Shown here: one piece after another, positions 10,325-53,348 of the stretch
Numbering within the stretch: the stretch's first letter is position 1
Layout of the letters: every line of letters starts with the position of its first letter
Assembly: GCA_964016885.1 (NCBI GenBank)
Contig: OZ024745.1
Span: 123,256,001 to 123,320,000 of the forward strand
DNA: 64,000 bases
Reading direction: 5' to 3'
Source of the DNA: Eledone cirrhosa
Taxonomy: Eukaryota
The notes under the pieces: model-generated
Database searches by the model: none
The model's input: only the letters and a program-made list of their open reading frames with translations
Told to the model about the DNA's origin: nothing
Program-made: the position numbers and the translations under genes

Positions 10325-10360
10325 TCTTCTGATGAAGGACTAGCGTCCGAAACGTTGAGA
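10325..10360 (+). ncRNA. minimal type-I hammerhead ribozyme (Penelope-LTR type)
   Basis: tctt-CTGATGA-a-GGAC-tagc-GTCC-GAA-ACGT-T-gaga. Confidence 0.8.
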
Positions 10361-10521
10361 CCCTCTTCCTGCTATATCAAGCGTTAACCTAATATATACC
10401 TTCCATATACTGTACCGATTGTGTTGTTATTTCTGTTTACCTTTTACATACATATATATATATATATATATAGTAATAATAATAAATATATATATATATA
10501 TTAATTAAAATAACAGATTAA

Positions 10522-10572
10522 AGTTTAAGCAAAGAATCGCTGCTTTCACCCTTAACGGGATTTTCTGAAACT
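10522..10572 (-). ncRNA. variant or decayed hammerhead (CAGAAAA core); same family as 53298
   Basis: agttt-CAGAAAA-tcccgttaagggt-GAA-AGCAG..TTGCT-T-aaact. Confidence 0.55.
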
Positions 10573-10784
10573 ATAAAAGTCAATCTGTGAACGCAGAAGT
10601 AAATATTTCAAAAAACGTTGCAACCGAAGGAAGACAGGAAGAAGAAACTTTGGTTCGTGGAAACGTTCCTTGGCAAAGAACGGAAAAAAAACGATATAAT
10701 ACGTCATTATTTGGTGCGGTGAAAACAATTACACGCAAACCACGTTTATGGTATAAAAGAAGTTGCAGACTAATATATATATAT

Positions 10785-10962
10785 CAGCATCATCATCATT
10801 TTACGTCCGCTTTTCCCTGCTCGCAAGGGTTGGACGGGTCCTATTCAGCACAGCATCTCTCCACCCGTCACGGACCTTCGTCATCTTCTCCGTGAGTTTC
10901 AACGACTGAGGTCTGCTCTCACTACCTCCGCCCATGTTTTTTGTGGTCTACCTCTACTGTGA
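10785..10962 (-). mobile_element. RTE 3' end fragment
   Basis: matches the 1307-1500 copy, (CAT)n tail. Confidence 0.85.
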
Positions 10963-11006
10963 ATATATATATCCGTAACTTTCTCTCTCTCTCTCTCTCC
11001 CTCTCT

Positions 11007-11046
<40 letters not shown>

Positions 11047-11236
11047 TTAGGTTTGTTGGTTCACCACTGGATAGAACTGGACATTCTGTATGGTCAACCT
11101 CAATGTAATAATAGGGAGAGCACTCGACGTAATGCAACTCACCCGTCTTCGTTTGTGTTGTTGGTGGTGCGAGTACGGAGTTAATTATTATAAAATAACA
11201 GGAGGCTGGACTGGTGTAATTCCTTAAAGGTTTATT

Positions 11237-11294
11237 ATACTATGAACATTTCAATGACTGGGTCCAGTATGAATCCAGTGACATCATCAGGTAT
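11237..11294 (-). ncRNA. type-I hammerhead ribozyme in a (TA)n-flanked element
   Basis: atac-CTGATGA-tgtcACTGG..CCAGTcatt-GAA-ATGTTCAT-A-gtat, then aataaa. Confidence 0.7.
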
Positions 11295-11759
11295 TCGAAA
11301 TTTAACAAAGGAATATAATCCATGGGGCTGAAAAGGCAGAGAGACAAGAAGGCTGCCACACATTTAGAAGTTTCTAGTTCAGTCACCTGCCTTCAAGTTA
11401 TTTTATAATATATATATATATATATATATATCATCATCATCATCATCATCATTTTATAATATATATATATTATATATATATTATATATATATCATCATCA
11501 TCATCATCATCAACGTTTAACGTCCGTGTTCCACGCTTGCATGGGTTTGGACGGGGGTTTTCCCACTTGAGGCAAGAGTGATTATCTTGCTCGCATAGGA
11601 CTATATATATAATCACTGTTACAGTGTATATATATATTATATATTGGTATAAGATATTGTATGCAGAAAAACAGGCTAGGAAGAGTGAAGATAAATTTGG
11701 AGAGAGATTTATTTGATTTATATTTTATACTATATATTAATGTGTGAGAATGACAAAGC

Positions 11760-12062
11760 AAATGAGAAACTGTGTAAGAGGAATCAGAAGTACTGTGCCG
11801 GAAAGGAGACTGCATTTGTATGGACATATGATGTGTATGGATAATGATTGTTGGTTGAAGAAGTACCAAATAATCCTAGCAGACGGAAGCCATAGTAGGG
11901 GAAGATCAAGGAAGACATAGATGGAAGTGGTGAGAGCTGATTTCAGATTGGTAAAGCTCACTGAGTAAAGAACGCGACAAGTGGAGAAACGCTGTACTGA
12001 GAAGGAGCCAACCAACCCAAGCAAGCATGGAACAATGGGTGTAAAATGATGATGATGAGGAT
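11760..12062 (+). mobile_element. RTE 3' end fragment
   Basis: degenerate RRLHLYGHMM..GR motif and (GAT)n tail. Confidence 0.8.
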
Positions 12063-12257
12063 GATATATATATATAGAAAATGTTCAAGATCCCGATGGC
12101 AGAGCTTGAACATCTTCCTATTACCCACTCTACTACCCTAAGTATTGAGTACTCTGGTACATTATAGTCCACCTGGTTCCTTACCACACTTCCTTCGTTA
12201 TATATATATATATATAAGAATAATTAAGAAAGATGCTGATATTACATAAATCGTTTA

Positions 12258-12348
12258 TTCATAATAATTATTTCAACGGTTCCCCCATGCAATCCAAGAT
12301 GTAATTCATGCCTTTGTTGTTGTTATGAGAATGGTATCTTCAGATGAA
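12258..12348 (-). ncRNA. type-I hammerhead with long stem II region
   Basis: ttcat-CTGAAGA-(~62 nt)-GAA-ATAATTAT-T-atgaa, overlapping aataaa. Confidence 0.65.
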
Positions 12349-13899
12349 ATTCTATTTTGTGATATGCCACAGGTAGAAAGACAGAAAGACACGTCCTTCT
12401 GTTCATGTGCCTGGCAGACATATAAGTTCCTAAAGGGTCTTTCCCAGCCATTGTGTTTTCATTTTCTGGAGTGAAGTGCTATCTATGTGTCAATTAGCGA
12501 ATCTGGACACATGTACCCCCCACTGAATTAGGGTCGTATATTATCAAAGGATAACCCTTCAAGAGTGTTGTGTTGACCTACACCAGACAATCGTCAATGT
12601 GTAGCTAGATTTCAATAGTGGAAGCAATAAACGGAACTCTGAGGGAGGGCGATATAGACAGTTTGATGACAGCTATATTCAAGACAACCACAACAACAAC
12701 AACCACACCGACCACATCGCCTACACTGGCCATTGTACTAGCAGGGATAATAATTGTTTCTACTTTTGGCACAAGGCCAGCAATTACCCAGTATATTACT
12801 GGTACTTTAGTTTATCGACCCCGTAAGGATGAAAGGCAAAGTTAACCTCGGCGGGATTTGAACTCAGACCGTAAAGGGAGGTAACTATGCTGGAAAGCAT
12901 GGCGTCCGTCCCTCTACCGATACAGCCAATTCACCGCCCCCTGCTAATGGCACCCGATATCCGATCAACAGCAACAGCAACAACAACAACACTAGTAATG
13001 AATCCGTCATGACGACGACATCAACAAAAAAATGCTCCGGTGGTGTCGGTCGCTGTAAATAAATTCATATAATAATAATAATTGTTTCTACTTTTGGCAC
13101 AAGGCCAGCAATTACCCAGTGCATTACTGGTACTTTATTTTATCGACCCCGTAAGGATGAAAGGCAAAGTTAACCTCAGCGGGATTTGAACTCAGAATGG
13201 CAAGGGCCATAACTCTATGTGTCAAAGCATGGCGTCCGATTCTCTACTGATACTGCCAATTCACTGCCCCTGATATAGTAATAATAATAATAATAATAAT
13301 CATTTCTACCCTTTGGCACAAGGTCAACAATAATCCCAGTGCATAATAATAATTAGTTATAATAGTAGTCAGTAGTAACTACATTGGTATTAATAATAAC
13401 AACAGCAACAACTATGCCCGGACAAAAAGGGACTACTAGACTATGGATGCGAGTTGTAGGTAGCGAACAAAGGAACAAAAAACATACATATCAGAGATTT
13501 GCTTCTAGAAAGATGATACGTACATGTCAGCAACAAATTTGACACCACGTGTTGCAACAAACTTTACCTAAGTCTACAATTAACTGGGAAAATAAAGAGT
13601 ATAAACAGTTAAAATATATCCTTAGCAAAACTTTCCAGAGATTAATCTGTGTATGAAACTTTATTTTAAAACAAAGGCATACAATGACTATATTAAACAA
13701 GAAACCAAATAATTGTTTCTACTTTTGGCACAAGTACATTACTGGTACTTTATTTTATCGAGCCCGTAAGGATGAAAGGCAAAGTTAACTTCGGCGGGAT
13801 TTGAACTCAGACGGTAAAGGGACGTAACTATGCTGGAAAGCATGGCGTCCGACTCTCTACCGATACTGCCAATCCACCAAATAATGAAATTCTGTGTGC

Positions 13900-15440
13900 T
13901 ATTGACAAAATTAGAGGTGAATGTTTATAACAAACTAAAGCCCCTTCATTTTGGCAAGTTAACGGCTATATGCCCTGGCAATGACTGTAGTGTATTATCT
14001 TGGTGATAAAAGAGATGTTAACAGAAAGAAAACAACACAAAAAATCTCATCGTATATTTCAAAAATAGAAAAAAATGATTGCTGACCAATGAAAAACTAT
14101 TGGCCACGTAACAATGCTTATCTTATCACATGGAAACAAAAACCAAAAGACTACACTCCTCACCAACAGAGTGAAAAATAAAATAGAAATGATGTTTGGA
14201 GACAGTATAAGCAGAACTCTTCAATGCAAGTAAATTGCCCTCAAGCAGGAACTGGGAGCTGTCAGCAGGAAACTCTGGTATCGAAAGAGGATGAAAAGAA
14301 AATGATTAATAAAAGATTCAGCTGAAATGGAGACATAGATTCCTCCTGAAGAAAAATATGGGATGAGGAAAAGAAATTCAACCAAGATACAGTGTAGTTG
14401 AAATAGATCCAAACAAATTACTGCCTGTGCATTACACTAAAAACATATAGTATCAATGAGGAAACCCTTGAGACTGTGATAGGAAAACTTCAAGATAAGA
14501 AAGCGCCAGAAAGAGACTTCATTGTCAGCAAATGCACAAAAAATTTACTTTCTATCAGATGTATCTTATCAACCTCTACCAGAAAACTCTCATGGGAGAT
14601 ATATATATATCAAGTTGTTTGATATTAGCAGAAACAATATTGTACATAGGAGAAACTTAGTTACAGTCTGGCTGGACTACAAGAAAGAATTTGATTATGT
14701 TCCCTACTTTTGGATGCTAGAGCTTGTTTGAATTACTAAACTCTCAGATATGATTATCAGAGCCATAAAGAACCTATCTTCTTCCTGAAGTTAAATTCAA
14801 AACCTATCACTGTCCTGAAGTTGAAAAACAGAAAAGGGGGACTATATTGTCACTGATAAAATAAAATATTGCAGGGGCATATTTCAATGAGACAGTCTCT
14901 ATGTGGTGCTATTTTTACTGTCAATAAATCTCTTGTCCTTTATGCCGAGGAAATATGAAGGATATGTAATTGGTTAACAGGAGGCCAGAAACACTAACCT
15001 AACACATTGCTTCTTTGTGGATGAGCTGAAACTTTATGCCAAGTTTATAAATGGTAAGAAAAAACCTTGATCTGGTTACAACATTCTCGAAAGATACTGG
15101 AATGGAGTTTGGCCAGGATAAATGTTCCTATATGATAGTAAAGTGAGGAAAAGCTAGAAGCCAGTTTAGCAACATTTATATCAATGGTGTAACTGTTTAA
15201 CTGGTTCCTAATGAGGACTGCTACAGATACTTAGGGATATATGTGAATACATCCTATGAAGGAATTTCTAACAAGGAACAAATAACCAAGGAATATAACA
15301 TCTGAATAAGGAAAATATGCTCTTCTGAATTTTCTGTGCAAAACAAATCAGTGGCTCACAATGTTTTTGTTGTGACTGTGCTCACAAAATTTGGACTACT
15401 TGACTGGACACAAGATGAGATCCAAGTCATTGATGTTAAA

Positions 15441-15442
<2 letters not shown>
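13900..15442 (+). mobile_element. decayed R4/Dong-like LINE, RT region
   Basis: WLDYKKEFDYVP, RGIFQ*DSL, FFVDELKLYA, GMEFGQDKC, YRYLG, FGLLDWTQDEIQVIDVKT; many stops. Confidence 0.8.
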
Positions 15443-15471
<29 letters not shown>

Positions 15472-15950
15472 CTTCTTCTTCTTCTTCTTCTTCTTCTTCT
15501 TCTTCTTCTTCTTCTTCTTCTCCTCCTTCTTCTTCATCGCCCACTTATTCCTGAGGGATTCATGCGACAGAGTTCTCAAACACTCCCTCCAGTGGGTCCT
15601 GTCAGAAGCAACCATCTCCAAGTGATCCGACTGGATCCCCAAGAGTGACCAGCTAAGCTCAAGGATGTTATCCAATCATCTTACTCTGGGTCTACCCCTG
15701 GGTCTCCTACCAGTTGGTTTTGCCAACTGTAAAATCTGTCCAGCGATTTTTCTGAAACATTCTAACCACATTCCCATAGTATCAGAGTTTGGAGCTCTCA
15801 ATTTGGAGAAGTAATGGCTCTACCTGGAGTGACTCTCTGATCTCCGAACTATGCACTTTATAGTGTAACATTACTCCAAGACCCTTCAGAGGAATCCCAT
15901 TTCAGCCACTTGCATTTGCGATTGTATTCTTTCAGTCATTACCCAAGATA
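15443..15950 (-). mobile_element. RTE-like 3' end with long (GAA)n tail
   Basis: GRPRVRW..LEMVASDRTHWR on the minus strand; (TTC)n 15443-15535. Confidence 0.8.
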
Positions 15951-16029
15951 AGTGTGTATATTGATATTATACGCAAGTATATATACATATATATATACAT
16001 GTAGATATGATACATAAAATAAAATCGTA

Positions 16030-16390
16030 ATTGACAATATACACAGAAATTGAACAAAGTCTGCATTACACTGTCTTATGTAATCAGTAACGTAATCCAT
16101 GATACATTAAAAAAAGACGATATTATATATAAACTGCATTAGGAGAAACTTAATGACGGAAATATATGAATGTTTATTTAAGTGATTGCTAACTGGAAGT
16201 GTTGACATTTGAAAATTTAAAAAAAGTGAATCTTTGAATAATTAATAAAATATATTTAATCAAAAGCCACAAAATTTAGTAGATACATTATGTAATATTC
16301 ATTCATTATTTATTCAAAGTAATCCAACTTATTTTACAAACGGGATAAAAAATTATATTCTGGATGCACTCCTTTCTTTATTATAGTTAT
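16030..16390. repeat. dispersed duplicated segment (second copy 50560-51125)
   Basis: collinear similarity, near-identical core attatgtaatattcattc...ggatgcactcct. Confidence 0.85.
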
Positions 16391-17155: not shown

Positions 17156-17159
17156 AGAA

Positions 17160-19505: not shown

Positions 19506-19526
19506 ATATTATATATATTATATATA

Positions 19527-19683
19527 TCATTTATATTAAGGCTAAAAGTGAGTCTTGTCATCCTGAAGTTTCACCTGTTTATCACAGGGTCATCAGACAA
19601 TAACAGTTTTTGTCTAATGACCCTATGATAAACAGGTGACACTCCAGAGTAACATGACTCACTTTTAGAATTAGTATAAATGA
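19527..19683. repeat. imperfect palindrome with a hammerhead core in each arm
   Basis: minus arm CTGATGA-cCCTGTgataaACAGGt-GAAAC; plus arm CTAATGA..GACACTCCAGAGTA. Confidence 0.8.
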
Positions 19684-20039
19684 ATATTAAAACTACTTCG
19701 GTATAGATTACTCCTTTCTCTCAGCTGTCAATGACATATGGATATATATATATATAAGAGGCATGCATCAGTTACAATGTTAGATCAATGAATAAAAAAT
19801 AAAATCAGCAAAAAGCAAGTAAGATAGAAGTTACCTTCTTACTTCAAAAATCTCAACAGCGGTTTAGCCTTATAAGATTAATTTAGGATAATCAATGTTG
19901 AAGGGAAAAAACCCTGAACACCCCCACATAACTAAAAGTGGACTAGGCGAAATGTCTATAGATAATAACTGAAGTGAACTTCTGCACACGCTTGACCCCT
20001 CCACCTTCACCCCTCCGCCTCTGCCTCTTTCACTCCCTC

Positions 20040-20727
20040 ATATCCCTGCACTGTAGTCACCATACCCCAGGACCTACCACTCTCCAAAGCTGAGTGCCCC
20101 CTCCTCGCCTGTGGTTTGCGTTTTATACCAACCACATCTACCTGCGACGAGTTCCGCACACGTGCCGAGATTGAAGGGTTCTTCCGTCGATTAAAGCTGA
20201 AAGCTTTTTTTCATGACACGCCATCATCGACACAGACGGATGACTTCACTCGTCTCAGTCGCTGGCAATTACATTGGACGCCGAGCTCTGGCCAGTTCAG
20301 CACCCTCGACTCCTTTGTCGAAACCTGCCGACGTACTGTCAATCGGTTCCATTTCCACCAGCATTCTTGTCGCTCTAACATCACGCGAACTGAGCTCTCC
20401 GCTCTTCACAAACTTCGACGTCGCGATGACATTATCATCAAACCAGCTGACAAAGGTGGCGCTGTGGTGGTTTGGAGCACTGACCTCTATAGGGCTGAGG
20501 CTCTCCGCCAGCTTCACAATACCCTTTTTTACCGCCCTTTATCCTCCGACCCCACTCCTGGCTACCAATAACTTGTGTCCTCCACCATCCATGAGCTCAT
20601 GTACTCCTCCCTCCTACCCCCCACAGCCATCAACCTTATTGTACGCACCCCTCGCACACCCACCATCTACTTCCTGCCCAAAATACACAAACAAAATAAT
20701 CATGGCCGTCCTATTGTTTCTGCATTT
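20040..20727 (+). mobile_element. Penelope-like element, N-terminal/RT region fragment
   Basis: FFRRLKLKAFF, IIIKPADKGGAVVVW, PLSSDPT, YFLPKIHK..GRPIVSA; in-frame stop at 20571. Confidence 0.9.
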
Positions 20728-22399
20728 GTAGGTTTAAGTTTGTATGTAAGGGAAGGCAGGTCTTCTGTATAACACATATATATATATTTGATGATTTGTT
20801 CTATTCTCCCTTGTGGTCGAGTAAAACTAGGCTGGAAGGTGAGCTATTTCCAGCAATCCTTCATACTTGCTGATTTTTTCTTACTTTGAATTTATAATGC
20901 TCATTGAGCAAAAATTGTAACTGATGGATATTTTTATATGTCTATTCACGGTTATATATCTTTGATAATTTGTTATAAACATATATATATAGATATATAT
21001 ATACATACAAATATATGAAGTATATATGTATATATATATATATATACACATAAAATATATGAAGTATATATATATGTATATACAAATATATGAAGTATAT
21101 ATATTCTTGTCGATCTTGTGAGCTGCTTAGCAATAAATAATTGTTGCTGAAAAAAATAAATATGGTACAATAAGGAGTTTTTTCTTGAATTTTGTGATAA
21201 AGTCTGGGTTTTTTTTGATCAGTAGATTATCTAATATGGCCACATTTTCTTTGAAGCTTTTGACAGATAAGTAGCTAGGTTTTTAATTTCTTTATTAACT
21301 TCTTTTAGCTCCTCTATGAAAGTCGAATATGTATAAGGCAAATCGATATTGCATTTTGGCAGAGTTTTGTAATAAGCTCCAACCCATTTCTTTTTTTTTT
21401 TACTTGAAATATATTTTTGGGGTGGGTGGGGGATCTTTATGTTTTAAATGACATTATAATTCTGCAGAAAAATAAAAATTCCAAATTTCAAATTTTTCTT
21501 TTGTTTATTGCAAGCCTCACTTTCTCTGTTTCAAAATATGCAGCAGGCTGGATCCTTTTCATTTTAGATACTTTAAGGTTTTTTTTTTAATTACACATTT
21601 TAAGTATGGAAAATTCAGATATTTTTTTTTTAAATTAATAAATTCAATTTTTTAACGTCCACATTCTTTGTCCATACTGGAGTATGTAACATGACATAAC
21701 ATACTCACTATGGATTTGTTTATTCATTCTTTTTGCTTTATTGCGAGGGGGGGGGGGATTATACATTTTAGATGCAAGTTTGCCAAAAAAAAAAAAAAAC
21801 ATTTTTAAATCTTAGATTCAGTTTTTCCCTACAAAGGGTCCTATTCCAAAACTACACTTAAAAGATTTCTTTTGATTTTTACTCCTGAGAAAAAGCACTC
21901 CATGTCATGAAGTTTGATCTCTTAATCTCTGCCTCCTAATTCTTCCAAATTATTAATTACCAATTGTTGATATCCCACCTTCTGGTGACATTTTTAAATT
22001 GTAAAAGCAAGAAATATTTTTTAAAACATTCAGAAATATTCCATATATGGACCGAAGCTCATGAAGCCAGATACCCAAGGTCAATCTAAAAAAAGACTGA
22101 CTTGTGCATTTAAATATGTTAATTTAGAGAACAATGACTGAATCCACAGTATATTGTGACTGTAACAAAACACTAATGCAGCATACCAGTGTATTTAACA
22201 CTTTCATCACCATATTTTTAAGTTACACTATATTTTAATTAATTGATGAAAACGGAGGAATTTACTAAAAGTATTAGTTATTCCTAAACTAAGATGTTGT
22301 TTGTTCATAATCATCATAAACATCATTGACATGTTAAACTGGGCTGGAAGTGGTATCAAAATTGGCGAGTGTTGGATTGGTTGGGTCACATTTGTAGTT

Positions 22400-30042: not shown

Positions 30043-30077
<35 letters not shown>

Positions 30078-30163
30078 GTAGGAGGTGAGTTTTATTGTAG
30101 TACAATAAAGCAATGCAGATATCGGATAAGAAGCACTCTACAGTTTGTGGGACTGGAGTATGC

Positions 30164-30506
30164 ATAATATAAGATCAAAAGATGGTTAAAGGAGTTCCAT
30201 ATATTTTATTATGCGCATTTCAAAAACAAACATCATCAAGCAATAATATTTGTGTTTTCATCAGATAAAACAGGAGAACATGATATGAAGGCTAAAAAAC
30301 ACTTGTTGATAGTGCAGTTTTAAATCAACATATCAGATATGTTGATTTAAAACTGCACTATCAACAAGTGTTTTTTAGCCTTCATATCATGTTCTCCTGT
30401 TTTATCTGATGAAAACACAAATATTATTGCTTGATGATGTTTGTTTTTGAAATGCGCATAATAAAATATATGGAACTCCTTTAACCATCTTTTGATCTTA
30501 TATTAT
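30164..30506. repeat. perfect 343-bp palindrome (171-bp arms, 1-nt spacer at 30335)
   Basis: arm-by-arm reverse-complement identity checked by eye. Confidence 0.95.
30398..30468 (+). ncRNA. type-I hammerhead ribozyme (mirror copy at 30202-30272, minus)
   Basis: tgttttat-CTGATGA-long GU-rich stem II-GAA-ATGCGCAT-A-ataaaata. Confidence 0.82.
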
Positions 30507-30539
30507 ATATATATATATATATACATAAATATATAAAAT

Positions 30540-31345
30540 AATTAAGTCAAATATGTAAAATTTGGCTTCGTTTATTATAAATTATAAATTTACTGCTATA
30601 TATATTTCGGTGACAGCCATTATTGGCTGTGACCTCTTCAGGCAGTCCGAATTGGTGTGGAAAAGACAGGTACACATGTTGTTGAAGTGTGTTTCACTCT
30701 GTCAATTCATCGATATGTCCAGCTCCTGGGTGTGTTGTTAGTCCTCCGAGGAACTGTAATCATATGCGTGAGAACAAACGAATTTCAGTGTCTTGGGAGA
30801 CATTCATATCCCATTGGTCAGTTGTGAGACCACTCCTCAGTCAAAAGTCTATAGAAATTCTTCTGAAGCCGGTCAGCCTGTTATAGTTGTTTTTGTCCGA
30901 ATGTTTAAGTACAGCTGACCTCCTTCCCTGTGTTGGTAGTGATAGTGGTGTTAAGAGGTCAGCTAGCAGGTCAACTTTAGTATGCTGCTGCTATTGTCTG
31001 AAGAATTTAAGTGTGTAGGCTGGCACCCACCATTTCCCGTGTTGGGGGATGCCAAACAAATAAAGAATGTGTGTGTGTTACAACCAATATCAAAAAATTT
31101 GAACCTGTGTGTCAGAATTGAGAAGTGTAAAGAATAACAATTCTTATTTTAGCATAGAGTACATACGTGTGATTGTCTGTCAGCTCGCACCGTTGCGCAT
31201 GCACACGTATAAAGACAGGCTCCAAGATTGAACGGGATTTACTAACCAGATTCTTGCAAACTTGTGGAGTTACCCCTAACCATACGTTGGAAACCGTCCA
31301 AGAAACCATGAACTGGATTACAATAAGCAATTTTCTGCTTTCCTA
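30540..31345 (-). mobile_element. probable decayed Penelope-like 3' region
   Basis: terminal HHR, (TA)n flanks, weak QQQH..RSAVLKH similarity to the endonuclease region. Confidence 0.45.
30592..30646 (-). ncRNA. type-I hammerhead ribozyme
   Basis: actgc-CTGAAGA-ggtcacagcca..tggctgtcacc-GAA-ATATATAT-A-gcagt. Confidence 0.85.
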
Positions 31346-34170: not shown

Positions 34171-35132
34171 GGAGGCACATGGCTTAGTGGTTAGAGCATT
34201 GGGCTTGCAATCGAAAGGTTGTGAGTTCAATTCTCAAACCGGGTGATGTGTTGTTTCCTTGAGCAAGACACTTGATTTCACATTGCTCCAGTTTACTCAG
34301 CTGTAAAGATGAGATGATAGAACGGGGTCCCTATCATTCCACTGCAAAAAAAGCACCCAGCACACACTGTAACGTGGACGTGTAGGCGCCACAGAAAAAA
34401 AAGCACCCAGCACACACTGTAACGTGGACGTGTAGGCGCCACAGAAAAAAAAGCACCCAGCACACACTGTAACGTGGACGTGTAGGCGCCACAGAAAAAA
34501 AAGCACCCAGCACACACTGTAACGTGGACGTGTAGGCGCCACAGAAAAAAAAGCACCCAGCACACACTGTAACGTGGACGTGTAGGCGCCACAGAAAAAA
34601 AAGCACCCAGCACACACTGTAACGTGGACGTGTAGGCGCCACAGAAAAAAAAGCACCCAGCACACACTGTAACGTGGACGTGTAGGCGCCACAGAAAAAA
34701 AAGCACCCAGCACACACTGTAACGTGGACGTGTAGGCGCCACAGAAAAAAAAGCACCCAGCACACACTGTAACGTGGACGTGTAGGCGCCACAGAAAAAA
34801 AAGCACCCAGCACACACTGTAACGTGGACGTGTAGGCGCCACAGAAAAAAAAGCACCCAGCACACACTGTAACGTGGACGTGTAGGCGCCACAGAAAAAA
34901 AAGCACCCAGCACACACTGTAACGTGGACGTGTAGGCGCCACAGAAAAAAAAGCACCCAGCACACACTGTAACGTGGACGTGTAGGCGCCACAGAAAAAA
35001 AAGCACCCAGCACTCACTGTAAATGAGGTTGGTGTTAGGAAGGGCATCCAGCTGTAGAAATCAAGCCAGAATCAGTTCCTCTCCCACCCTTGCAAGCAGG
35101 GAAAAGCAGACGTAAAATGATGATGATGATGA
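34171..35132 (+). mobile_element. tRNA-derived SINE family 2 with RTE-type tail, expanded internally
   Basis: A-box tggcttagtggtta, B-box gagttcaattc, ccttgagcaagacact core, (GAT)n tail; relatives at 35960-36299(-), 44851-45180(+), 52385-52716(-). Confidence 0.85.
34346..35012. repeat. perfect 50-bp tandem repeat, 13 full copies
   Basis: acagaaaaaaaagcacccagcacacactgtaacgtggacgtgtaggcgcc. Confidence 0.97.
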
Positions 35133-35216: not shown

Positions 35217-35524
35217 ATATCACAGAAAAAAAGTGTTGCGACAAATGGAATTTATTGAACATATTACAATCGTTTCTCTGACGACCAGCTCGAGGCACGA
35301 TCGATGTGATGATCGAACCAGACTCTGAAAATTGCAAGGTCCTCAGATACATCTTGATTCTATGAAGCAGAGAATCAAGACGTATCTGAGGACCTTGCGA
35401 TTTTAAGAGTGAGGTTCAATCATCACATCGATCATGCCTGGAGCTGGTCGCCAGATAAACGATTGTAAAATGTTCAATAAATTCCATTCATCTCAACACT
35501 GATTCTCTTTTTTTCTGTGATATA
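35217..35524. repeat. imperfect ~300-bp palindrome with hammerhead cores (35258-35353 minus; 35379-35474 plus)
   Basis: gatgtat-CTGAGGA-(~63 nt)-GAA-ACGATTGT-A-atatgtt; plus arm has GAAA changed to TAAA. Confidence 0.8.
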
Positions 35525-35650
35525 TATGTGTGTGTATGTGTGTATGAACATATATATATGTAAATATAGTATATATATATATATATAAGAAAATGAGGGG
35601 TTTTTTCCAAAATGAAAAAAAAATGAGATGTCCTACACGAGTGAAAGTAA

Positions 35651-35906
35651 AAGGAAAAAAGATGAAATCGAAAATGCAACGGGAGTCTTTTTAAGAATAT
35701 TTATTTGTTTCCTTTACCGGTTTCACAGTTCTTTTCAAAAGTAGAATTGAGATGGAGGGTTTGTGGTTTTTCTCACAAGAAAAGCTACAAACCCTCCATC
35801 TCAATTCTACTTTTGAAAAGCATAAGAACTGTGAAATCGGTAAAGGAAACAAATAAATATTCTTAAAAAGACTCCCGTTGCATTTTCGATTTCATCTTTT
35901 TTCCTT
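35651..35906. repeat. near-perfect ~255-bp palindrome with U3-A8 variant hammerhead cores
   Basis: ctt-TTGAAAA-gcataagaactgt-GAA-ATCGGT-A-aag at 35810-35845; the left arm has ACCGGT but lacks 6 nt of stem II. Confidence 0.8.
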
Positions 35907-36526
35907 ATATATGTATATATACATATATGTCAATATATATATTTTTACATATATATATATCATCATCATCATCACCATTTTACGTCCGTTCTTCCACGCT
36001 AGCATGGGTTAGACGGGTTGTCCTGTTGTGGACAGTGTCTGGTCAGCTGACCTTCCTAACACCAACCTCATTTACAGTGAGTGCTGGGTGCTTTTTTGCC
36101 ATGGCACCTCCACGACCACTTTTGCAGTGGAATGATAGGGACCCCAGTCCTATCATCTCATTTCTACAGCTGAGTAAACTGGAGCAATGTGAAATAAAGT
36201 GTCTTGCTCAAGGAAACAACACATCACCCGGTCCGAGAATCGAACTCACAACCTTTCAATTGCAAGCCCAATGCTCCAACCACTAAGCCATGCATCTTCA
36301 TTATATATATAATATAATAATTGTTTCTACTTTTGGCTTAAGGACAGCAATTACCCCAGTGCATTACTGGTGGTTTATTTTATTGACCTGGTAAGCATGA
36401 AAGACAAAGTTAACCTCGGCGGATTTGAACTCAGAATGCAAAGGGCCATAACTCTATGGTGCAAAACATGGTGTCTGACCCTCTACCAATACTGCCAATA
36501 TATATATATATTTATATATATATATA

Positions 36527-36897
36527 TACGTACATACATATATGTATACAGACGTACAGTAGTATGTGTATATATACATACATGCACACATATATATATG
36601 TACGTATGGATTCACCGAACATTTATTATAATGCTCGGTTTGTTTGTAAACAAACATCCCGAATTAAGCCGTACAGTGTTTAGCAACCACCGTTGCCCTT
36701 TTGTTCAACACTGACAATGGAACGATGTACTAGTTTCAAGCTTATTAGCTATCGTCAGCTTATTAGCTATCGTATAAACAAACCGAGCATTATAATAAAT
36801 GTTCGGTGAATCCATACGTACATATATATATGTGTGCATGTATGTATATATATATACATACTACCGTACGTCTGTATACATATATGTATTTACGCAT
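36527..36897. repeat. ~120-bp inverted repeats around a spacer containing a hammerhead core (36724-36760, minus)
   Basis: CTGACGA-tAGCTaataAGCTt-GAA-ACTAGT-A; arms ..ggattcaccgaacatttattataatgctcggtttgttt and its reverse complement. Confidence 0.8.
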
Positions 36898-37570
36898 ACA
36901 TACTTATATTTAAGTAACAGCCGTACTAAGAGTGAGAAATGAAATTTCGTTTCATTTTTCCCATTTATAAATATATATATAACCATAAATATATATACAT
37001 TTCTGTGTCTGTGTGTTTTTCTCTATGTGTGTATAAGAAATTGATTTAAGATAGATATGGTGCCAGAGTGGATAGCTACCAGCTGCTCTATGTTTAACTG
37101 ATATCAATAAAGTTTTTTGTTTAATTATAGATCTGTTATTTATCCCCAACAAAAACTCAGATTAGTTAGGGAGGAAGAATGATATATTGCAATATTTCTT
37201 CTTTTCCCTAGCACATATGAATGAATGAAAATTACTTCAATGTGGGATTGAATTTGAACTTTGCAATCTATGTATAAAGGATGTATAAAGGGAGACTATA
37301 AAGGGAGACTTCCATTCAATCCAACATTTAAAAAAAAAACATTTTGTCACGGAGAGAAGAGCAGTGCTAATGATCCATTTTGAAACTTCTGTGACTGATG
37401 TTAGTGAAAGGAGGAAAGCACTCTTAACTCTTTTGATTCCAACTGCCTCAAAACATCTCTCACTCTATGACACAAAACTGTTTATTTTAAATTGTTTATA
37501 TTTATATAAAAACTTTGCATCTAAATTCTATATAAGAACTTTTGTTAAAAATTATATTTCAAACACCATC

Positions 37571-38035
37571 TTAACCTCTTCAGTGCCACAGACGAGGTAA
37601 CTCATCCTAACATGTCTGCATTCCAGTACCATGGACGAGGTAACTCATCCTAACATGTCTGCATTCCAGTACCATGGACGAGGTAACTCATCCTAACATG
37701 TCTGCATTCCAGTACCATGGACAAGGTAACTCATCCTAACATGTCTGCATTCCAGTACCATGGACAAGGTAACTCATCCTAACATGTCTGCATTCCAGTA
37801 CCATGGACAAGGTAACTCATCCTAACATGTCTGCATTCCAGTACCATGGACAAGGTAACTCATCCTAACATGTCTGCATTCCAGTACCATGGACAAGGTA
37901 ACTCATCCTAACATGTCTGCATTCCAGTACCATGGACAAGGTAACTCATCCTAACATGTCTGCATTCCAGTGCCACAGACGAGGTAACTCATCCTAACAT
38001 GTCTGCATTCCAGTACCATGGACGAGATAACTCAA
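37571..38035. repeat. 43-bp tandem repeat, about 10 copies, derived from the MITE family B end
   Basis: aggtaactcatcctaacatgtctgcattccagtaccatggaca after TTAA-CCTCTTCAGTGCCA. Confidence 0.92.
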
Positions 38036-38242
38036 CTGTCACCACAGAATATGAACCTGAAGATTGCGAAAGCATGAAAGTACTTGTTCAATTAACACTT
38101 AACATTTAATATTCTACCATACTATTTCATTCTAACACCATTATAAATTTTAAAGGATTGTAAATAAAACTAGTAAATCAGACAAAGCTGTTATTCCTTT
38201 TATTAATATAATCTTCTATACACAATCATACACACCCGTGTA

Positions 38243-38994: not shown

Positions 38995-41900
38995 TACCTT
39001 CATACATCTACATACACATACTTACACCACATACATCTACATACATATACTTACACCACATACATCTACATACATATACTTACACCACATACATCTACAT
39101 AGATATACTTATACCACATACATCTACATACATATACTTACACCACATACATCTACATACACATACTTACACCACATACATCTACATACATATACTTACA
39201 CCACATACATCTACATACATATACTTACACCACATACATCTACATAGATATACTTATACCACATACATCTACATACACATACTTATACCACATACATCTA
39301 CATACACATACTTACACCATATACATCTACATACATATACTTATACCACATACATCTACATACATATACTTACACCATATACATCTACATACACATACTT
39401 ATACCACATACATCTACATACACATACTTACACCACATACATCTACATACATATACTTACACCACATACATCTACATACACATACTTACACCACATACAT
39501 CTACATACACATACTTACACCACATACATCTACATACACATACTTACACCACATACATCTACATACACATACTTATACCACATACATCTACATACACATA
39601 CTTACACCATATACATCTACATACATATACTTATACCACATACATCTACATACATATACTTACACCATATACATCTACATACACATACTTATACCACATA
39701 CATCTACATACATATACTTATACCACATACATCTACATACATATACTTACACCACATACATCTACATACACATACTTACACCACATACATCTACATACAT
39801 ATACTTACACCACATACATCTACATACACATACTTATACCACATACATCTACATACACATACTTATACCACATACATCTACATACACATACTTACACCAC
39901 ATACATCTACATACATATACTTACACCACATACATCTACATACATATACTTATACCACATACATCTACATACATATACTTACACCATATACATCTACATA
40001 CACATACTTATACCACATACATCTACATACATATACTTATACCACATACATCTACATACACATACTTACACCACATACATCTACATACACATACTTATAC
40101 CACATACATCTACATACATATACTTACACCACATACATCTACATACACATACTTACACCACATACATATACATACACATACTTACACCACATACATATAC
40201 ATACACATACTTACACCACATACATCTACATACATATACTTATACCACATACATATACATACACATACTTACACCACATACATCTACATACATATACTTA
40301 CACCACATACATCTACATACACATACTTACACCACATACATCTACATACATATACTTACACCATATACATCGACATACACATACTTACACCACATACATC
40401 TACATACATATACTTACACCATATACATCGACATACACATACTTACACCATATACATCTACATACATATACTTACACCATATACATCGACATACACATAC
40501 TTACACCACATACATATACATACACATACTTATACCACATACATCTACATACACATACTTACACCACATACATATACATACACATACTTACACCACATAC
40601 ATCTACATACACATACTTACACCACATACATCTACATACACATACTTACACCACATACATCTACATAGATATACTTACACCACATACATCTACATACACA
40701 TACTTACACCATATTCATATACATACACATACTTACACCACATACATCTACATACATATACTTACACCACATACATCTACATACACATACTTACACCACA
40801 TACATCTACATACACATACTTACACCACATACATCTACATACACATACTTACACCACATACATCTACATACATATACTTACACCACATACATCTACATAC
40901 ATATACTTACACCACATACATCTACATACATATACTTATACCACATACATCTACATACACATACTTACACCACATACATCTACATACACATACTTATACC
41001 ACATACATCTACATACACATACTTACACCACATACATCTACATACACATACTTATACCACATACATCTACATACACATACTTACACCACATACATCTACA
41101 TACACATACTTATACCACATACATCTACATACACATACTTACACCACATACATCTACATACACATACTTATACCACATGCATCTACATACACATACTTAC
41201 ACCACATACATCTACATACACATACTTACACCACATACACATACTTACACCACATACATATACTTACATATACTTACACCACATACATCTACATACACAT
41301 ACTTATACCACATACATCTACATACATATACTTACACCACATACATCTACATACACATACTTACACCACATACATCTACATACACATACTTACACCACAT
41401 ACACATACTTACACCACATACATCTACATACACATACTTACACCATATACATCTACATACACATACTTACACCATATACATCTACATACACATACTTACA
41501 CCACATACATCTACATACACATACTTACACCATATACATCTACATACACATACTTACACCACATACATCTACATACACATACTTACACCACATACATCTA
41601 CATACACATACTTATACCACATACATCTACATACACATACTTACACCACATACATCTACATACATATACTTACACCACATACATCTACATACATATACTT
41701 ATACCACATACATATACTTACATATACTTACACCACATACATCTACATACATATACTTATACCACATACATCTACATAGATATACTTACACCACATACAT
41801 CTACATAGATATACTTACACCACATACATCTACATACATATACTTACACCACATACATCTACATAGATATACTTACACCACATACATCTACATACACATA

Positions 41901-42065
41901 CTTACACCACATACATCTACATACATATACTTATACCACATACATATACTTACACCACATACATACTCAAAGATAGATTCATACATCTACACATACATCA
42001 CTGTATCCACATACATACTTAAAGATAGACACTTACATGTACATACACATACTTACACCACATAC
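38995..42065. repeat. 29-bp minisatellite, about 100 copies
   Basis: catacatctacatacacatacttacacca with C/T variants; plus strand almost G-free. Confidence 0.97.
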
Positions 42066-42589
42066 ATACACAAACATACAGACACATACATGTACATACA
42101 CACCAATGTATTAATTTGTACATACTTTTATAAATATGTACGCATGTTTAACTATAATTAAACAATAGCATAGCTCGGCCACCTACCCACATACATATAG
42201 ACACATACACACCACTATATTAATTTGTTTATACAACTATAAATATGTATATAGTTATGTGTATATATCTGACTAATTGTTTGCATGTTTATGGATAAGA
42301 ATATAATAAATAGGCAAATTATTTGTTTGCCTAAAAATAGATGAATTATTTCTATATTTATGAATTTATTTTATTTTATTTTATTTTACAGAGTAGGTAA
42401 AAATTAGAATAGCAATAATAATTTCAAGATCTTGTTATATTCTGAAAATAAGGAACACAATTAATTAAGAATTTCTTATAAAAGATGACTATCTATAAAA
42501 TAGAAATACAGACTATTCAATATTAGCAATTGTGTATCTAGAAGCCTACTGACATAGTTTCAGCATAATGGAAATTGGTGTGAGAATTA

Positions 42590-47026: not shown

Positions 47027-48554
47027 TATCCATGAGGCTCGCACCTGCTGCTAGCCAGCTCAGCGCCTATGGTCGAAAGTAGGGAGGTAACCCTAGGGCC
47101 AAGGATACCAGAAGTCTTCACTGCTAGGGACACAACCGCAAACTTGTCGGAGAGCAATCAATACTTGGAGAGTTTGCCCTCCTCAGCCCAAAATCACATG
47201 TATATAGCAACACAGACTTCTCTCTTATAAACTACATCCATATATATCTACCATATATATCACATGTACATACCAACACAGTCTTATATACTTCATTATA
47301 TATTATATTCCTGTTATAGTAAGCTTTTTTTCGCAGCTAGCTTATGCTACATCAGTCATGCACACTAACATTTCATACACATACACACACACACGCGCAC
47401 TCACACAAAAGATGGGACGGGCTTCCACTTTGTGTTTGTCTACCAAATATTCCACTCACAAGGCATTGGCCAACTAAATGCTACATTAGAATATACTTGT
47501 CTGAAGTACTGCAAAATCCTTAACCTTATAGTTATATGATTTTATTAATTTACTTAAATAACAAGAATTAAGATAAGAAAAAGAGAATAATTACTAAAAA
47601 ACCCCAATTAGTTTTGTGTTATATTTGCTGAGTTTTAAAGACCACCGAAAATAATGGGATGTTTTACTGTCATTCAAAAACTTAAATTAGTCTCAAGGTG
47701 AGAACTTTTTATTTGTATTCTCTCATGTCAACATCTTTTACATTCCTATACTTATTAGCTGTTAGTTGACAAGACCCCACAGTTATAATATATAAGTAGT
47801 TTAGTTTTACCTCCCAGTGATCTAAGCTGATGTAGATCAATAGCTCAGGAGAAAAGCAAGATAAGTCATTGCCTTGAAAAGGAAATGTCAAAATAGAGAC
47901 TAGTAGATAGAAAATTCACTTAAGTCTACACATCACCCAAAATTAATTGGCTTGGAAGCTCTTGTAGTACAGAACTTACAAGGAAATGCTAATGAAGAAG
48001 GTCGCCAAAGTCTTCTGTGACATTTAATAAAGTAACTGTCAACTCTTGAGAGGAATTAATTCTGTCAATGCTGATTAGTAGTTTTCTTTCACCAAATATT
48101 GGTATTAACTCAGTGTGTAATGGCACTCTTTTAAATTAGGTGTTCACTCTGGAATCAACAAAAGAAGATTTATGTTAACACTACCATAATTGTCTTTAAT
48201 TTCATTAGGAAATTGAAGTATATTTATACATTTTTCACCTATCAAATTATTAGTAATAATTTAAATAGTTGCTACTACCAATTTTGTTTTCTTTATTCCT
48301 TATTATTTTCACCAATTGCATATAAAAATGAAAATCATTTGCTGCAAACTATAACTAGAGTCAGTTGGGTTTGACTAGTCTTGAGATTTGAAGGCAAAAT
48401 TTATACTAAATTCTTGAGCATCCAATTCAAGATTTAAGCAGAAGCCAAACAAGCTACAGGTTAGGACCTCACAGACTTCAGAGGCTGCAGAATAATAAAA
48501 AAAACATAGATGCTTTCAGTTTTTGTGAAACCTTCTGGTTTATTCAGTAGATGT

Positions 48555-49252
48555 TGAGGGTAATTTGACAGTAGAAGTCGCAGTGATAGGCACATTTTTC
48601 AAATGCAGGTAGGATATATAGAGGTGGTTGATAGCTTCCGATAGCTAGGTGATCAGATTAGCAAGGGAAGAGGCTGCTCCGAGGCCATAGTATCTAGAAT
48701 AAGGTCAGGTTGGAAGAAGTTTAGGGAGCTGCTTCCTCTGTTGACAAAGAAGGGCTTCTCCCTACGAACAAAAGGCTGGTTATATGATGCCTGTGTAAGA
48801 TGCGCGATGCTGCATGGTAGTGAGACATGGGCAGCAACTGTGGAGGATATGCGACGGACGGCTGAAGAGAAATGAAGCAAACATGCTCCGATGGATGTGC
48901 AATGTCAATGTGCATCAATGACCAAACATAGATGAGTTGAGAGAAAAACTGTGTATAACAGGGATAAGCTGTAGTGTGCAGGAGAGAAGACTGCATCGGT
49001 ATAGACATGTGATGCGCATGAAGGTTGACCGCTGGGTAAAGAAGTGTCAAGAAATTCCAGTGGAAGGAAGACGTAGTAGAGGAAGACCACAAAAATCATG
49101 GGCAGAGGTGGTGAGAGCTGACCTCAGATCGCTGAAGCTCACAGAGGAAATGACAAAGGACCATGACGAATGGAGAGATGCTGAGCTGAATAGGACCCAT
49201 CCCACCCTTGCAAGCAGGGAAATGTAGACGTAAAAGGATGATGATGATGATG
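48555..49252 (+). mobile_element. RTE 3' part
   Basis: GWKKFRELLPLL, MLHGSETW, GRPQKSW, (GAT)n. Confidence 0.9.
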
Positions 49253-49974
49253 TGGTGTAATTTTTAGCAAAGGGTCTCAGTCTAAATTCAATACTTAATA
49301 CACTGAACATTTAAACCGGCCAAAATTGTTGGCCTTGTGCCTAAAGTAGAAACAATTATTATTGTTCTTATTCATGATGATTTACAGAGTAATTCAGTTG
49401 ACTAAAAATATCATTTCAGTCATCCATTTGGTTGTTTATTTACAGAGTAATATTTATTTCCCTTTTCGTATAGATACTGTTTATATTGCAAATACTGTAT
49501 AAGTTTTGTATTTTGAACTGATAATAAATAATAATAATAATTGTTTCTACTTTTGGCACAAGGCCAGCAATTACCCCAGTGTATTACTGGTACTTTATTT
49601 TTTTGACCCCCGTAAGGATGAAAAGCAAAGTTAACCTTGGCAAGTTTTGAACTCAAACCCTAAAGGGCTGTAACTCTATGCTACAAAGCATGTTGTTCAA
49701 TGCTCTACCAATACTGACAATCCACCGCCCTTAAACAATAATAATAATGATGAATTTCAACGTTTTATTTTTCTAATATTCGGAATGAAATTGACTGGCA
49801 ATCAAATTACCGGGGTTCAAATTACCAGAGTCAAAATACCGGGAGTGAAATTACTGGGAATTTGCTTTCCATGATGCAAGTTTCAACAAGACTTGACAAA
49901 AGTCAGATTGATGAAGAAGGATTGAGTGAAAATGAATACAAGGTAAGTTATCTTACTAATGCAGTGAAGATAAA

Positions 49975-50340
49975 TCATCATCATCATCGTTTTTAAGTCC
50001 ATTTTTTCTTGCTTGCATGGGATGGACAAGCTCTTTTTAAACCTGGTATCTCTCCATTCGCTGTGTTCCTTTGTTATCTCCTTTGTGAGTCTCAGTGATT
50101 TGAGAGCAGTTCTCACCACTTCTGCCCAGGTCTTTCTTGGGCAACCTCTACTGCCATTTCCATCTACTCTTATTTTCTAGCACTTCTTCACTTCACCCAG
50201 TGATAATCATTCATGTATATCACATGTCAGTACCAACACTGTCTTCTCTCTTGCACACCACTTCAGATTCCTCTTAATATCCAGTTTCTCCCTCAGTTCA
50301 TCCAAGCTTTGCCTTTCTCTTACATTTATATTGCACATCC
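49975..50340 (-). mobile_element. RTE 3' fragment
   Basis: homologous to other RTE tails. Confidence 0.75.
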
Positions 50341-53164
50341 AGTCTACACTAAATAGAAATATAAAGCATAAAATCTAAATATATAGCTTAAAAAGACAAT
50401 AGAATAACTTTTAAGTGAAAAACTTCCCATCCATAATTAGATGAACTAGCAGAAAAACCACCCTTTCGGTGTTTTTTTTGCTAGCATGTGTAGTGTGCAT
50501 ATTGATATTATATGCGAATATATATGCATTTACATATGCTACATCAAATAAAATCTTAATTGAGAATATGCACAGAAACTGAAGAAAGACTGTGTTACAC
50601 TCTCTTCTGTAATCATTAAAATAATCCATGATACATTTAAAAAAGACAATATATACAAACTGCATAAGGAGAAAATTAGTGATGGAAATATAAATTTTAT
50701 ATAATGATGCAAATCTTATATAACGATGCAAACCTTATATAACGATGCAAATCTTATATAACGATGAACGTTTATATAAGCGATGTAATGATGTAATGAG
50801 TGTTATAGTATAATTGTTTCTACTTTTGGCACAAGGCCAGCAATTACCCAGTGTATTACTAGTACTTTATTTTATCGACCCCGTAAGGATGAAAGGCAAA
50901 GTTAACCTCGGCGGGATGGACTCTAACCAGAAGTGTTGACATTTGAAAATTTTAAAGAAGTGAATCTTGAAATAAGCAATAAAATTATCTATATTTAATC
51001 AAGAGTTATGAAATTTAGTGGATAAATTATGTAATATTCATTCATTATTTATTCAAAGTAATCCAACTTATTTTACAAACGGGATAACAAATTATATTCA
51101 GGATGCACTCCTCCTTTTATTATATTAAGATAGGTCTGATAACTACTAGTAGGTTGTATCGATGAAGAGATTATTATATAAAATATTCAAGAAATATTGA
51201 AATTTCCGACGATGTACAGAAGATTGAAAGTATGAGAATGAAAATTTGTTGACTTGAGTTTAAGATCTTAATGTTCATTAACCTGTTGACTGCCACATAT
51301 ATTTTACAGTTGCTATGCGAGGGTGTTTTCAGTAAAATGATTATTTTGATTGACAAACGTCACATCAATAAACTAGTAACCCCATATAGTTTTGAACTGA
51401 TATAGTTATGAACTGATAGAAATGAGTTCATAACTTTGAAAATATAAACTTTCGGAAACGAGTTTATAACTTTGAAATTATAAACTTTCGGAAACGAGTT
51501 CATAACTTTGAAGTTATGAACTGTTGGAAACAAGTTCATAACTTTAAAGTTATGAACTGTTGGAAAAGAGTCCAAACATGTTAGGACTAGTTATCTCGTC
51601 CATGGCACTGGAATGCATACATGTTAAGACGAGTTATCTCATCTACGGCACTAAAGGGGTTAATGTTACTTAAGAACACATTTATAATGTGCAATCAAAT
51701 TCCAATAATATAGGAGGTTGAAAATGTAAGTAAAAGTGTGTCAGCCTTAAATTTGGGATATTTGGTTGTAGTGTTTACATTGCTTCAGAAATCACTAAAG
51801 AAGTCTTTATATTTGAACAATACCTTTCCCTCAAGATCTACAATTATTTCAATCATATCTACTTATAAGTTATTCTCATTATCTGCATTATATGATTTTA
51901 CATAGAATATAGAACCATTCCAGTACAAATATGTATATTCTGCAGATCTTCAAAATGATATTTAAAGGTTTCAAAGTTGGTAGTATGGATGAGTAGGCTG
52001 TTATTTGTAATATTCAAGAATTGTAGAAACTTTCTGTGATACACAGAAGAATTCTTGAAACCAATCTATTCTTCAAATAAACATATGTGCTTGAATATTC
52101 TTATATCTTTCTTTGAGAATCATTTGTGCACTTCATAAAATTCAGAATAATTCATCTAAATAAAACAGGTTATTCTTCTCATTGCCAAAGTTCACTGCTT
52201 CATGATGGATCCACATCATTAGGGAATGCCACATATGAATCAAAATATTTGACTAACTATTGTCAAATATGCGTTAAAGACAGAAAAACTTTATAAATAA
52301 TACACACAAGTTCACAAATACACAACATATACATATTTAACACTTACATCTTAATAACAACACACTTTCACTATAGGGTAAAGATCCCCTTTGGTCACAA
52401 ATGACCATGGCATTTGCATCTCGAAAGTTCCTCTTCGAGGCACAACTCTGGGCTAGGTTGTTTGAGGAAGACCAGCAGTCACCCATGCATACCAGCCTCC
52501 CCTATCCACACCAGCGATGATGTCCAAGCGAAAGGCAATGGCTGATACAGCTTGACACTAGTGACGTCACAACTCATTTCTACAGCTGAGTAAACTGGAG
52601 CAACGTGAAATAAAGTGTCTTGCTCAAGGACACAACGCATCATCCGGTCCAAGAATCAAACTCACAACCTTTTGTTTGCAAGCCCAATGCTCTAACTACT
52701 AAGCCATGTGCCTTCATTATAATGATCTATATAATTATACAAAAAAATAAACACATTCTCATACACACAACACATACACTTTAACAATTATAATTACATT
52801 CAAAAATATAAACTTACAAACATATGAATTACTCCCCCTGAATAACAAAAGCACCAAGTTTATTGTTATATTATTGTTACCTCCTTTGCACTTGACAAGA
52901 TTTCATGTATAAAATAACATCAGCCATCTTAGTCTCACCTGAAAGATAAGCAACACTAGAGGATGCTTTGAAACCTTAGGTGGCAAGCAACTGTGTTGAG
53001 GAATTATTTATTATATATTTTGGCTCTAAACTTAACATAGAGTGCACTTTTATTGTTTGATCCTCAGAAACTCTCATACTATATATATATATATATATAT
53101 ATATCAGATAGGGTGTGGTAAAATACCCACCAGAGTACTTGATACTTGGGTAGTAAAGTGGGTA

Positions 53165-53245
53165 ATATGAAAAGATTCGGGACCCCGAAGGTTGAGCTCC
53201 AGCTGTTTTGACAGCTCAGCAGTCGGGGTCCTGAATCTTTTCATA
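53165..53245. repeat. ~80-nt hairpin in a (TA)n-flanked element (relative at 12075-12200, opposite orientation)
   Basis: atatgaaaagattcgggaccccga / tcggggtcctgaatcttttcatat. Confidence 0.75.
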
Positions 53246-53297
53246 TATATATATATATATAGTAATAATACTTCTGCATTCACAGATTGGCTTTTTT

Positions 53298-53348
53298 AGT
53301 TTCAGAAGATCCCGTTAAGGGTGAAAGCAGTGATTCTTTGCTTAAACT
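53298..53348 (+). ncRNA. hammerhead-like motif with U4A core variant
   Basis: agttt-CAGAAGA-tCCCgttaaGGGt-GAA-AGCAG..TTGCT-T-aaact, then aataaa. Confidence 0.6.

Follow-up and report, generated by a model that had tools for sequence, protein, structure and literature searches.

Probable truncated ends of Penelope-like elements with minimal type-I hammerhead motifs in a TA-rich region of Eledone cirrhosa

The region described here (the window) is a stretch of 64,000 nt of the Eledone cirrhosa assembly GCA_964016885.1 (contig OZ024745.1, positions 123,256,001 to 123,320,000), in which a first-pass annotation had listed about 12 loci with hammerhead ribozyme (HHR) cores. These loci are most probably truncated, often fold-back 3′ ends of several families of Penelope-like elements (PLEs), together with one tandem retrozyme-like fragment, all lying in (TA)n; their hammerheads would cleave only as dimers of the same family. 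A large radiation of TA-associated PLEs with minimal type-I HHRs, as proposed in that annotation, is upheld, and stem III is kept self-complementary.

Hammerhead sites in the window

The window (30-45% GC) abounds in (TA)n and satellites, and repeats found in fetched genomic loci match 53% of its length; the whole assembly comprises 2,996 Mb. The coordinates of the named loci agree on re-reading of every locus. Type-I HHRs had been named at 16 sites, 15 of which are members of 10 dispersed HHR repeat families (12 loci reduce to 10 families because 10522 and 53298 belong to one). Both core boxes and stems I-III are found at seven of them: 10325(+), 11237(-), 12258(-), 30202(-), 30398(+), 30592(-) and 35258(-). 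Eight are defective or variant family members. The last, 19855(-), had been given as a decayed HHR; it has neither core boxes nor stems, and the only repeat found there belongs to an unrelated 85-nt family. An intact HHR at 38052-38090(+) (site 38057, stem III AGTACT) is absent from the first list.

The features are sorted according to their position in the window.

10325..10360, +: minimal type-I HHR, complete, with stem III ACGT and a stem I of 4 bp; its family is dispersed.
10445..10776, -: Hydra-type PLE 3′ end, 5′-truncated; HHR-like motif at 10522-10572 with U4A core, G8A and hairpin stem III.
11237..11294, -: HHR whose core is complete; stem III ATGTTCAT, decayed from ATGATCAT.
12258..12348, -: HHR with complete core boxes; stem III ATAATTAT; long weak stem II (62 nt).
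19527..19683, both strands: fold-back whose two arms, each mutated, belong to one HHR family with stem III ACTCCAGAGT.
19996..20730, +: fragment of the N-terminal region of a PLE open reading frame (ORF), with DKG motif; no HHR at the adjoining 19855.
30076..30511, HHRs on - (30202-30272) and + (30398-30468): fold-back Hydra-type PLE 3′ end in (TA)n; two complete HHRs, ATGCGCAT.
30592..30646, -: complete HHR; stem III ATATATAT; stem I ACTGC/GCAGT; its family numbers at least 1,327 copies.
35224..35508, both strands: fold-back pair; HHR of the minus arm (35258-35353) complete, ACGATTGT; plus arm with G12U.
35600..35909, both strands: fold-back Neptune/Nematis-like PLE 3′ end; HHR with U3-A8 core, ACCGGT.
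36498..36975 (ends approximate), -: rearranged fragment of a retrozyme-like tandem family with units of 420-500 nt; ACTAGT; stem I lost.
38029..38240, +: autonomous Neptune/Nematis-like PLE, 3′ end; complete HHR at 38052-38090, AGTACT.
53269..53370, +: short 3′ end of the Hydra-type family of 10522; U4A core; hairpin stem III (53298-53348).

The arms of the fold-back at 30076..30511 are 176 nt long and 99% complementary, and one of them bears a tail of about 85 nt. The stem III ACGATTGT of 35258, described earlier as a one-mismatch palindrome, is fully paired via G-U. That of 11237(-) contains a U-U mismatch; ATGATCAT is present in two of three copies of its family.

The comparison with shuffled sequence that had been proposed as a check favours the motifs: five matches to the strict descriptor are found in the window, versus one in 12 block-wise dinucleotide shuffles of it (mean 0.08). 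No HHR is found in the window at the Rfam gathering threshold, the sole match being tRNA-like. Monomer folding says little about the motifs: eight of nine do not fold clearly better than shuffles (z > -1.3), and only 30592 reaches -3.6. Association with (TA)n and AATAAA was counted over 16 sites (15 named ones and 38057; site offsets approximate). A position in or beside (TA)n, claimed for all sites, holds for 14, each no more than 150 nt away from (TA)4+, a proximity seen for 24% of random positions. AATAAA, claimed just downstream of most sites, occurs within the next 40 nt at eight, versus 4.4%; two more span the cut site.

Core defects and core variants

G at the cleavage site: 19555(-). 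G5A and A14C: 19611(+). G12U: 35379(+). Stem I destroyed by an 18-nt duplication: 36724(-). The 35700/35810 family has a U3-A8 core, and the minus arm of the window copy bears a 6-nt deletion in stem II. The type-I core boxes (CUGANGA, GAAA-UH) and stems I and II are by majority complete in most families whose window copies are defective. Covariation to U3-A8 is known from nature (PMC3088659; PMC4209133), and the change from C3-G8 to U3-A8 keeps activity (PMC3088659).

The single family formed by 10522(-) and 53298(+) has CAGAAGA (U4A) as its core, and its stem III is a 17-nt hairpin without a palindrome; the 10522 copy carries G8A in addition. A4 is present in 100 of the 100 matches listed; both U4 and a palindromic helix III are lacking. 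No U4A hammerhead was found in the literature searched, in which U4C does occur (subscription papers and bioRxiv supplements lie outside the scope of this and the other literature searches). Its ribozyme would be either active, and then a new variant, or dead although the element itself is successful. A U4C-core subfamily (CCGAAGA) is found in another family, F10 (for example L051:3458).

Abundance in the genome

HHR families are defined by a descriptor without the stem III pairing term. Clusters confined to one locus are not included in the family counts, and several families rest on one to four copies. Cluster F0 (27-nt satellite, 47 matches, 2 loci) was rejected as a false match.

The bare core pattern gives 593,889 matches genome-wide versus 190,159 for the reversed control; the core with an 8-nt stem III gives 241,169 versus 46,842. 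The reversed control is an imperfect one, and a sample of 79 evenly spaced 10-kb regions (790 kb) was therefore added. It contains 153 core matches versus 47 for the reversed control, and 76 intact-looking family copies, of which 49 are solo, 19 inverted and 8 tandem. Pattern counts and sample together indicate roughly 0.3-0.4 million motifs in the genome. Exact family patterns, each with 0 matches in the control, number 71,743 for the clan of 30202/30398, 25,770 for the 36724 family, 17,487 for the 10522/53298 family, 12,133 for the 35700/35810 family and 1,327 for one subfamily of 30592.

In the family at 30.2 kb, many short copies have nearly the same 5′ end and 99% identity, a pattern that the query may bias and that suggests a young non-autonomous derivative of 250 nt.

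Association with Penelope-like elements

The families were to be linked to autonomous Penelope ORFs; this succeeds, at consistent ORF-to-HHR distances, for four window families, and no consistent ORF is found for six others in the fetched loci. An ORF with reverse transcriptase (RT) and GIY-YIG regions lies upstream of the HHR end in the 10522/53298, 30202/30398, 35700/35810 and 38057 families. Behind Hydra-type ORFs, the HHR is found at about 0.95-1.0 kb (30202/30398) or 0.87 kb (10522/53298); behind Neptune/Nematis-like ORFs, at about 1.0 kb (35700/35810) or 0.36 kb (38057). The 900 nt behind GIY-YIG matches linked one family only; the others were linked via inverted pairs and longer distances. 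Twenty outward-facing motif pairs, 1-5 kb apart, were fetched, and most of those more than 2 kb apart enclose PLE ORFs or pieces of them, an unbroken ORF of 800 amino acids among these. Unbroken ORFs of 800 amino acids (aa) (Hydra-type, L182:1592-3994) and about 1,000 aa (Neptune/Nematis-like, L053:1775-5062) suggest recent activity.

The Hydra-type ORFs (L182, L181, L191, L195, L196) encode DKT, RxRW, a CxCX5C linker plus a GIY-YIG-like region at the C-terminus, have no CCHH and are associated with (TA)n targets. RWT and RWC are found at the position of RWK, and the L182 element measures about 3.7 kb. These ORFs are not detected by a Pfam scan. In a tree that includes no named Hydra reference, they group with DKT homologues (100/100), apart from DKG elements. 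The Neptune/Nematis-like ORFs (35700/35810, 38057) encode DKG and CX4CxxC; the tree, built without a named reference, does not separate Neptune from Nematis.

In nineteen further copies of the element at 30.2 kb, the 5′ end is either fixed or variable, a piece in inverse orientation is attached at microhomologies, one of the arms carries an 85-nt tail, and the flanks are mostly (TA)n. An inverted 5′-truncated copy with a one-sided tail is a published PLE layout (PMC8557442). The tail was also considered as the 5′ untranslated region of a next tandem unit; this is ruled out, as it matches 3′ ends only.

The ACTAGT family of 36724 forms head-to-tail arrays of three to seven units with a period of about 420-500 nt and a motif in each unit; some arrays switch strand. 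Such head-to-tail units, each with an HHR and without any ORF found, in a genome where PLEs coexist, are also features of the non-LTR (long terminal repeat) retrozymes of animals (PMC7229834; bioRxiv 10.64898/2026.07.22.740005). Unlike these, the ACTAGT arrays switch strand, end in PLE-like fold-backs and carry an internal TA-rich tract. Judged by its sequence, the family is a retrozyme-like tandem derivative and a non-coding repeat. A second retrozyme-like array (G000:C1:1241766-1244278) has nine HHR cores with a 311-nt period.

Palindromes and compatibility between families

Stem III does not exceed 10 nt in 21 of 24 families; it is a long hairpin in the other three. In the 21 short-stem families, 57 of 59 non-core stem III pairs are complementary, as are 17 of 19 innermost pairs (chance 0.38). 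A monomer hairpin cannot form the innermost pairs. Stem covariation, whose absence had been named as an argument against the motifs, is found: ATATATAT, ATATGTAT, ATACGTAT and ATGCGCAT make up a compensatory stem III series in the big clan of 30202/30398, and 88 of the 89 fetched clan copies, a non-random sample, are self-complementary at stem III. Self-complementarity and compensatory change are what cleavage by dimers predicts, and they support selection for pairing between two copies. In family F10, stems III ACAATTGT, ACAGCTGT and ACGATTGT form a second compensatory series.

The idea of one palindrome per family holds among the palindromic families of the window and breaks down genome-wide: ATATATAT, ACAATTGT and ACCGGT are each found in two families, and 21 families have 18 distinct stems III, with central mismatches in two families. 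ATATATAT is shared by the 30592 family and the big clan, which differ in stem I. The palindrome alone does not act as a family-specific code, since three palindromes are reused, stem III of one family can pair with that of another in 14 of 276 family pairs, and three of 24 families have hairpins.

Going by the established geometry of the double hammerhead, each core would take its cleavage site and the 3′ strand of stem I from its partner, so that stem I would also be intermolecular in the dimer. Among the 276 family pairs, 14 are compatible at stem III, 26 at stem I and two, both pairs of sister subfamilies, at both helices; about 1.3 would be expected if the helices were independent. The families are thus effectively isolated (274 of 276 pairs), no more than drift gives, and isolation by stems I and III needs no selection.

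Proposed mechanism and its alternatives

Within tandem or paired transcripts from an active element, two motifs would join by way of the stem III palindrome and exchange their stem I strands, and cleavage would follow. The RNA trimmed in this way would be copied by reverse transcription into a nicked (TA)n target, and the short and the inverted copies would arise by early termination and template switching. Partner choice would rest on stems I and III, and families would become incompatible as a by-product, because these stems drift by compensatory steps via G-U. Most genomic copies are probably inert.

Several points weigh against this mechanism. No ORF consistently linked to the 10325, 11237, 12258, 19555, 30592 and 35258 families is found in about 1.6 Mb of fetched loci; for 30592, none lies upstream in five fetched copies. 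Only eight of the 76 intact-looking copies of the random sample have a same-strand neighbour. Cleavage by minimal PLE HHRs was weak, that of dimers included (PMC4209133), and eight of nine Xenopus dimers did not cleave (bioRxiv 10.64898/2026.07.22.740005). Family F1 (for example L072, L073; 21 copies in the family set, 13 copies in the 790-kb sample) has an AGAACT stem III with a central A-A mismatch; dimer cleavage may be dispensable, because this A-A family is abundant and the 17,487-copy U4A family has spread without a palindrome. Binomial values for stem III pairing overstate the evidence, because the families are not all independent. As a separate observation, F1 is among the most frequent families of the random sample despite its mismatch.

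A selected pairing code, in which selection drove stem III palindromes (together with stem I) apart, each family cleaving only its own RNA or being spared cleavage by siblings and parasites, is unlikely. It would fit the 18 distinct stems III in 21 families, the restriction of both-helix compatibility to two pairs of sister subfamilies, and sisters with the same stem I, ATATATAT and ATGCGCAT, that differ by two stem III mismatches. However, compatible pairs show no deficit relative to the number expected from 14 and 26 of 276, three palindromes are reused, ATATGTAT sisters are still compatible with both neighbours, and the Hydra families in File S2 of PMC8557442 show a like mix of shared and distinct stems. 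The idea of a code, as first put, is weakened; it is better framed as a testable address made of stems I and III.

The motifs could instead be passengers or non-catalytic structures whose palindrome serves RNA dimerisation or RT template switching, an account that is given a comparably small chance. Naiad elements spread without canonical HHRs (PMC8557442), published activities are low (PMC4209133; bioRxiv 10.64898/2026.07.22.740005), and the U4A and A-A families are successful. Against this, the core boxes are kept across unrelated families, and the 12,133-copy family shows covariation from C3-G8 to U3-A8.

A combined account is, as a whole, improbable to the same degree. It holds that the genome is among the most densely loaded with HHRs that are known (about one motif in every 7-10 kb), a large share stemming from Hydra-clade elements; that 20 or more families would form mutually exclusive dimers addressed by stems I and III; that sisters would have walked via G-U to incompatible palindromes under selection against cross-cleavage; and that a 17,000-copy family would now be a monomeric active U4A ribozyme.

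Action on the host, by intronic copies that cut pre-mRNAs or yield regulatory RNA, is very unlikely. The very high density (76 intact-looking copies per 790 kb), the AATAAA enrichment and the depletion of retrozymes from genes in Xenopus (bioRxiv 10.64898/2026.07.22.740005) could be read in its favour. However, no host exon was found in 74 of 84 non-repeat ORFs of at least 55 aa (one extra ORF included), which gave an RT match only, short exons being able to escape such a survey; five loci would fold into 77-99% paired hairpins hiding the core; eight of the 15 real sites are defective or variant; a lone copy has no dimer partner; and opposite-strand motifs cannot dimerise in cis. Cutting of host pre-mRNAs, suggested for any transcript spanning the hammerhead loci, is possible in principle, unsupported, and disfavoured for most copies because of the lack of a host exon, the five fold-back loci and the many decayed copies.

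Chance matches in AT-rich repeats are practically excluded as a general explanation: loose core patterns do have a large background (190,159 control matches), of which 19855 is a case, but the family patterns (71,743, 25,770, 17,487 and 12,133) have no match in controls, the stems covary, and chance origin is refuted for 15 of 16 sites.

Relation to known systems

The system is already known: palindromic dimer HHRs in PLEs and a (TA)n-targeting Hydra family of Octopus have been published. The scale, the families and the U4A variant are new.

The motifs share with the minimal HHRs of PLE pseudo-LTRs (Cervera and de la Peña 2014, PMC4209133) the type-I fold, the extra nucleotide after A9, the palindromic helix III, the U3-A8 variant, numerous consensus families within one genome, copies that are for the most part truncated and solo or in opposite-strand pairs, and the proposed dimer cleavage. 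They differ in number: about 0.3-0.4 million here versus about 2,000 and 1,300 (Schistosoma) and 9,000 (Xenopus). About 120,000 motifs are given for the axolotl in the group of papers PMC7229834, PMC6765202, PMC13282606 and PMC8967140; within the same group, the main text of the Octopus vulgaris repeat paper reports a Penelope-like expansion and mentions neither ribozymes nor the Hydra clade.

Hydra-1_Obim of Octopus bimaculoides inserts into (TA)n and carries an HHR (Craig et al. 2021, PMC8557442); an RWK motif and a length generally below 3 kb are given for the Hydra clade. The Hydra-type elements agree with this clade in DKT, RxRW, the CxCX5C linker, the absence of CCHH, the C-terminal GIY-YIG, (TA)n insertion and the 3′ HHR. 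They differ from it by at least three further families with different HHRs, RWT/RWC for RWK, an element that measures about 3.7 kb, and copy numbers in the tens of thousands. Five HHR motifs of these families have no match in the supplement text of PMC8557442. The AGTACT and ACCGGT families share DKG, a CX2-5CxxC linker, C-terminal GIY-YIG and a 3′ HHR with Neptune/Nematis-type PLEs.

HHRs with a small palindromic helix III (Luense et al. 2017) are mentioned in the review PMC6765202. In the literature searched, Craig et al. 2021 is the only source found for octopus HHRs, and nothing relevant was found on helix III heterodimers or on cephalopod ribozymes and retrozymes. This genome offers young high-copy families, an intact-looking ORF, a compensatory palindrome series and U3-A8 and U4A variants; with such natural families and variants, the dimer model and the specificity of homo- versus heterodimers are therefore open to direct test. 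The small-palindrome set of 2017 may already include cephalopod motifs. The data suggest that Hydra-clade elements, missed by Pfam, make up much of such genomes without being annotated, and that double-stranded RNA could arise from the densely spread fold-back copies.

Other features of the window

Dispersed repeat: the 85-nt repeat at 19890-19975 has 339 candidates, about 92% identical, and lies directly before the PLE ORF fragment. Short fold-back elements: 53140-53260, one of which resembles part of family F20, a family whose core is U3-A8 and whose 19-nt stem III contains an inner palindrome. Non-LTR retrotransposon ORF fragments: 1-3400, 58000-60000 and 62900-63650, with an RT match at 59580-59960. 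tRNA-like sequence: 34180-34237(+) and about 36230-36290(-), with an Rfam score of 31.5 bits; no tRNA is found in the window by ARAGORN, and the sequence is likely the head of a tRNA-derived short interspersed element. Minisatellites: 7564-8477 (40-43 nt), 34339-35022 (50 nt), 37591-38034 (43 nt) and 39001-42102 (29 nt), the last with an extreme GC skew.

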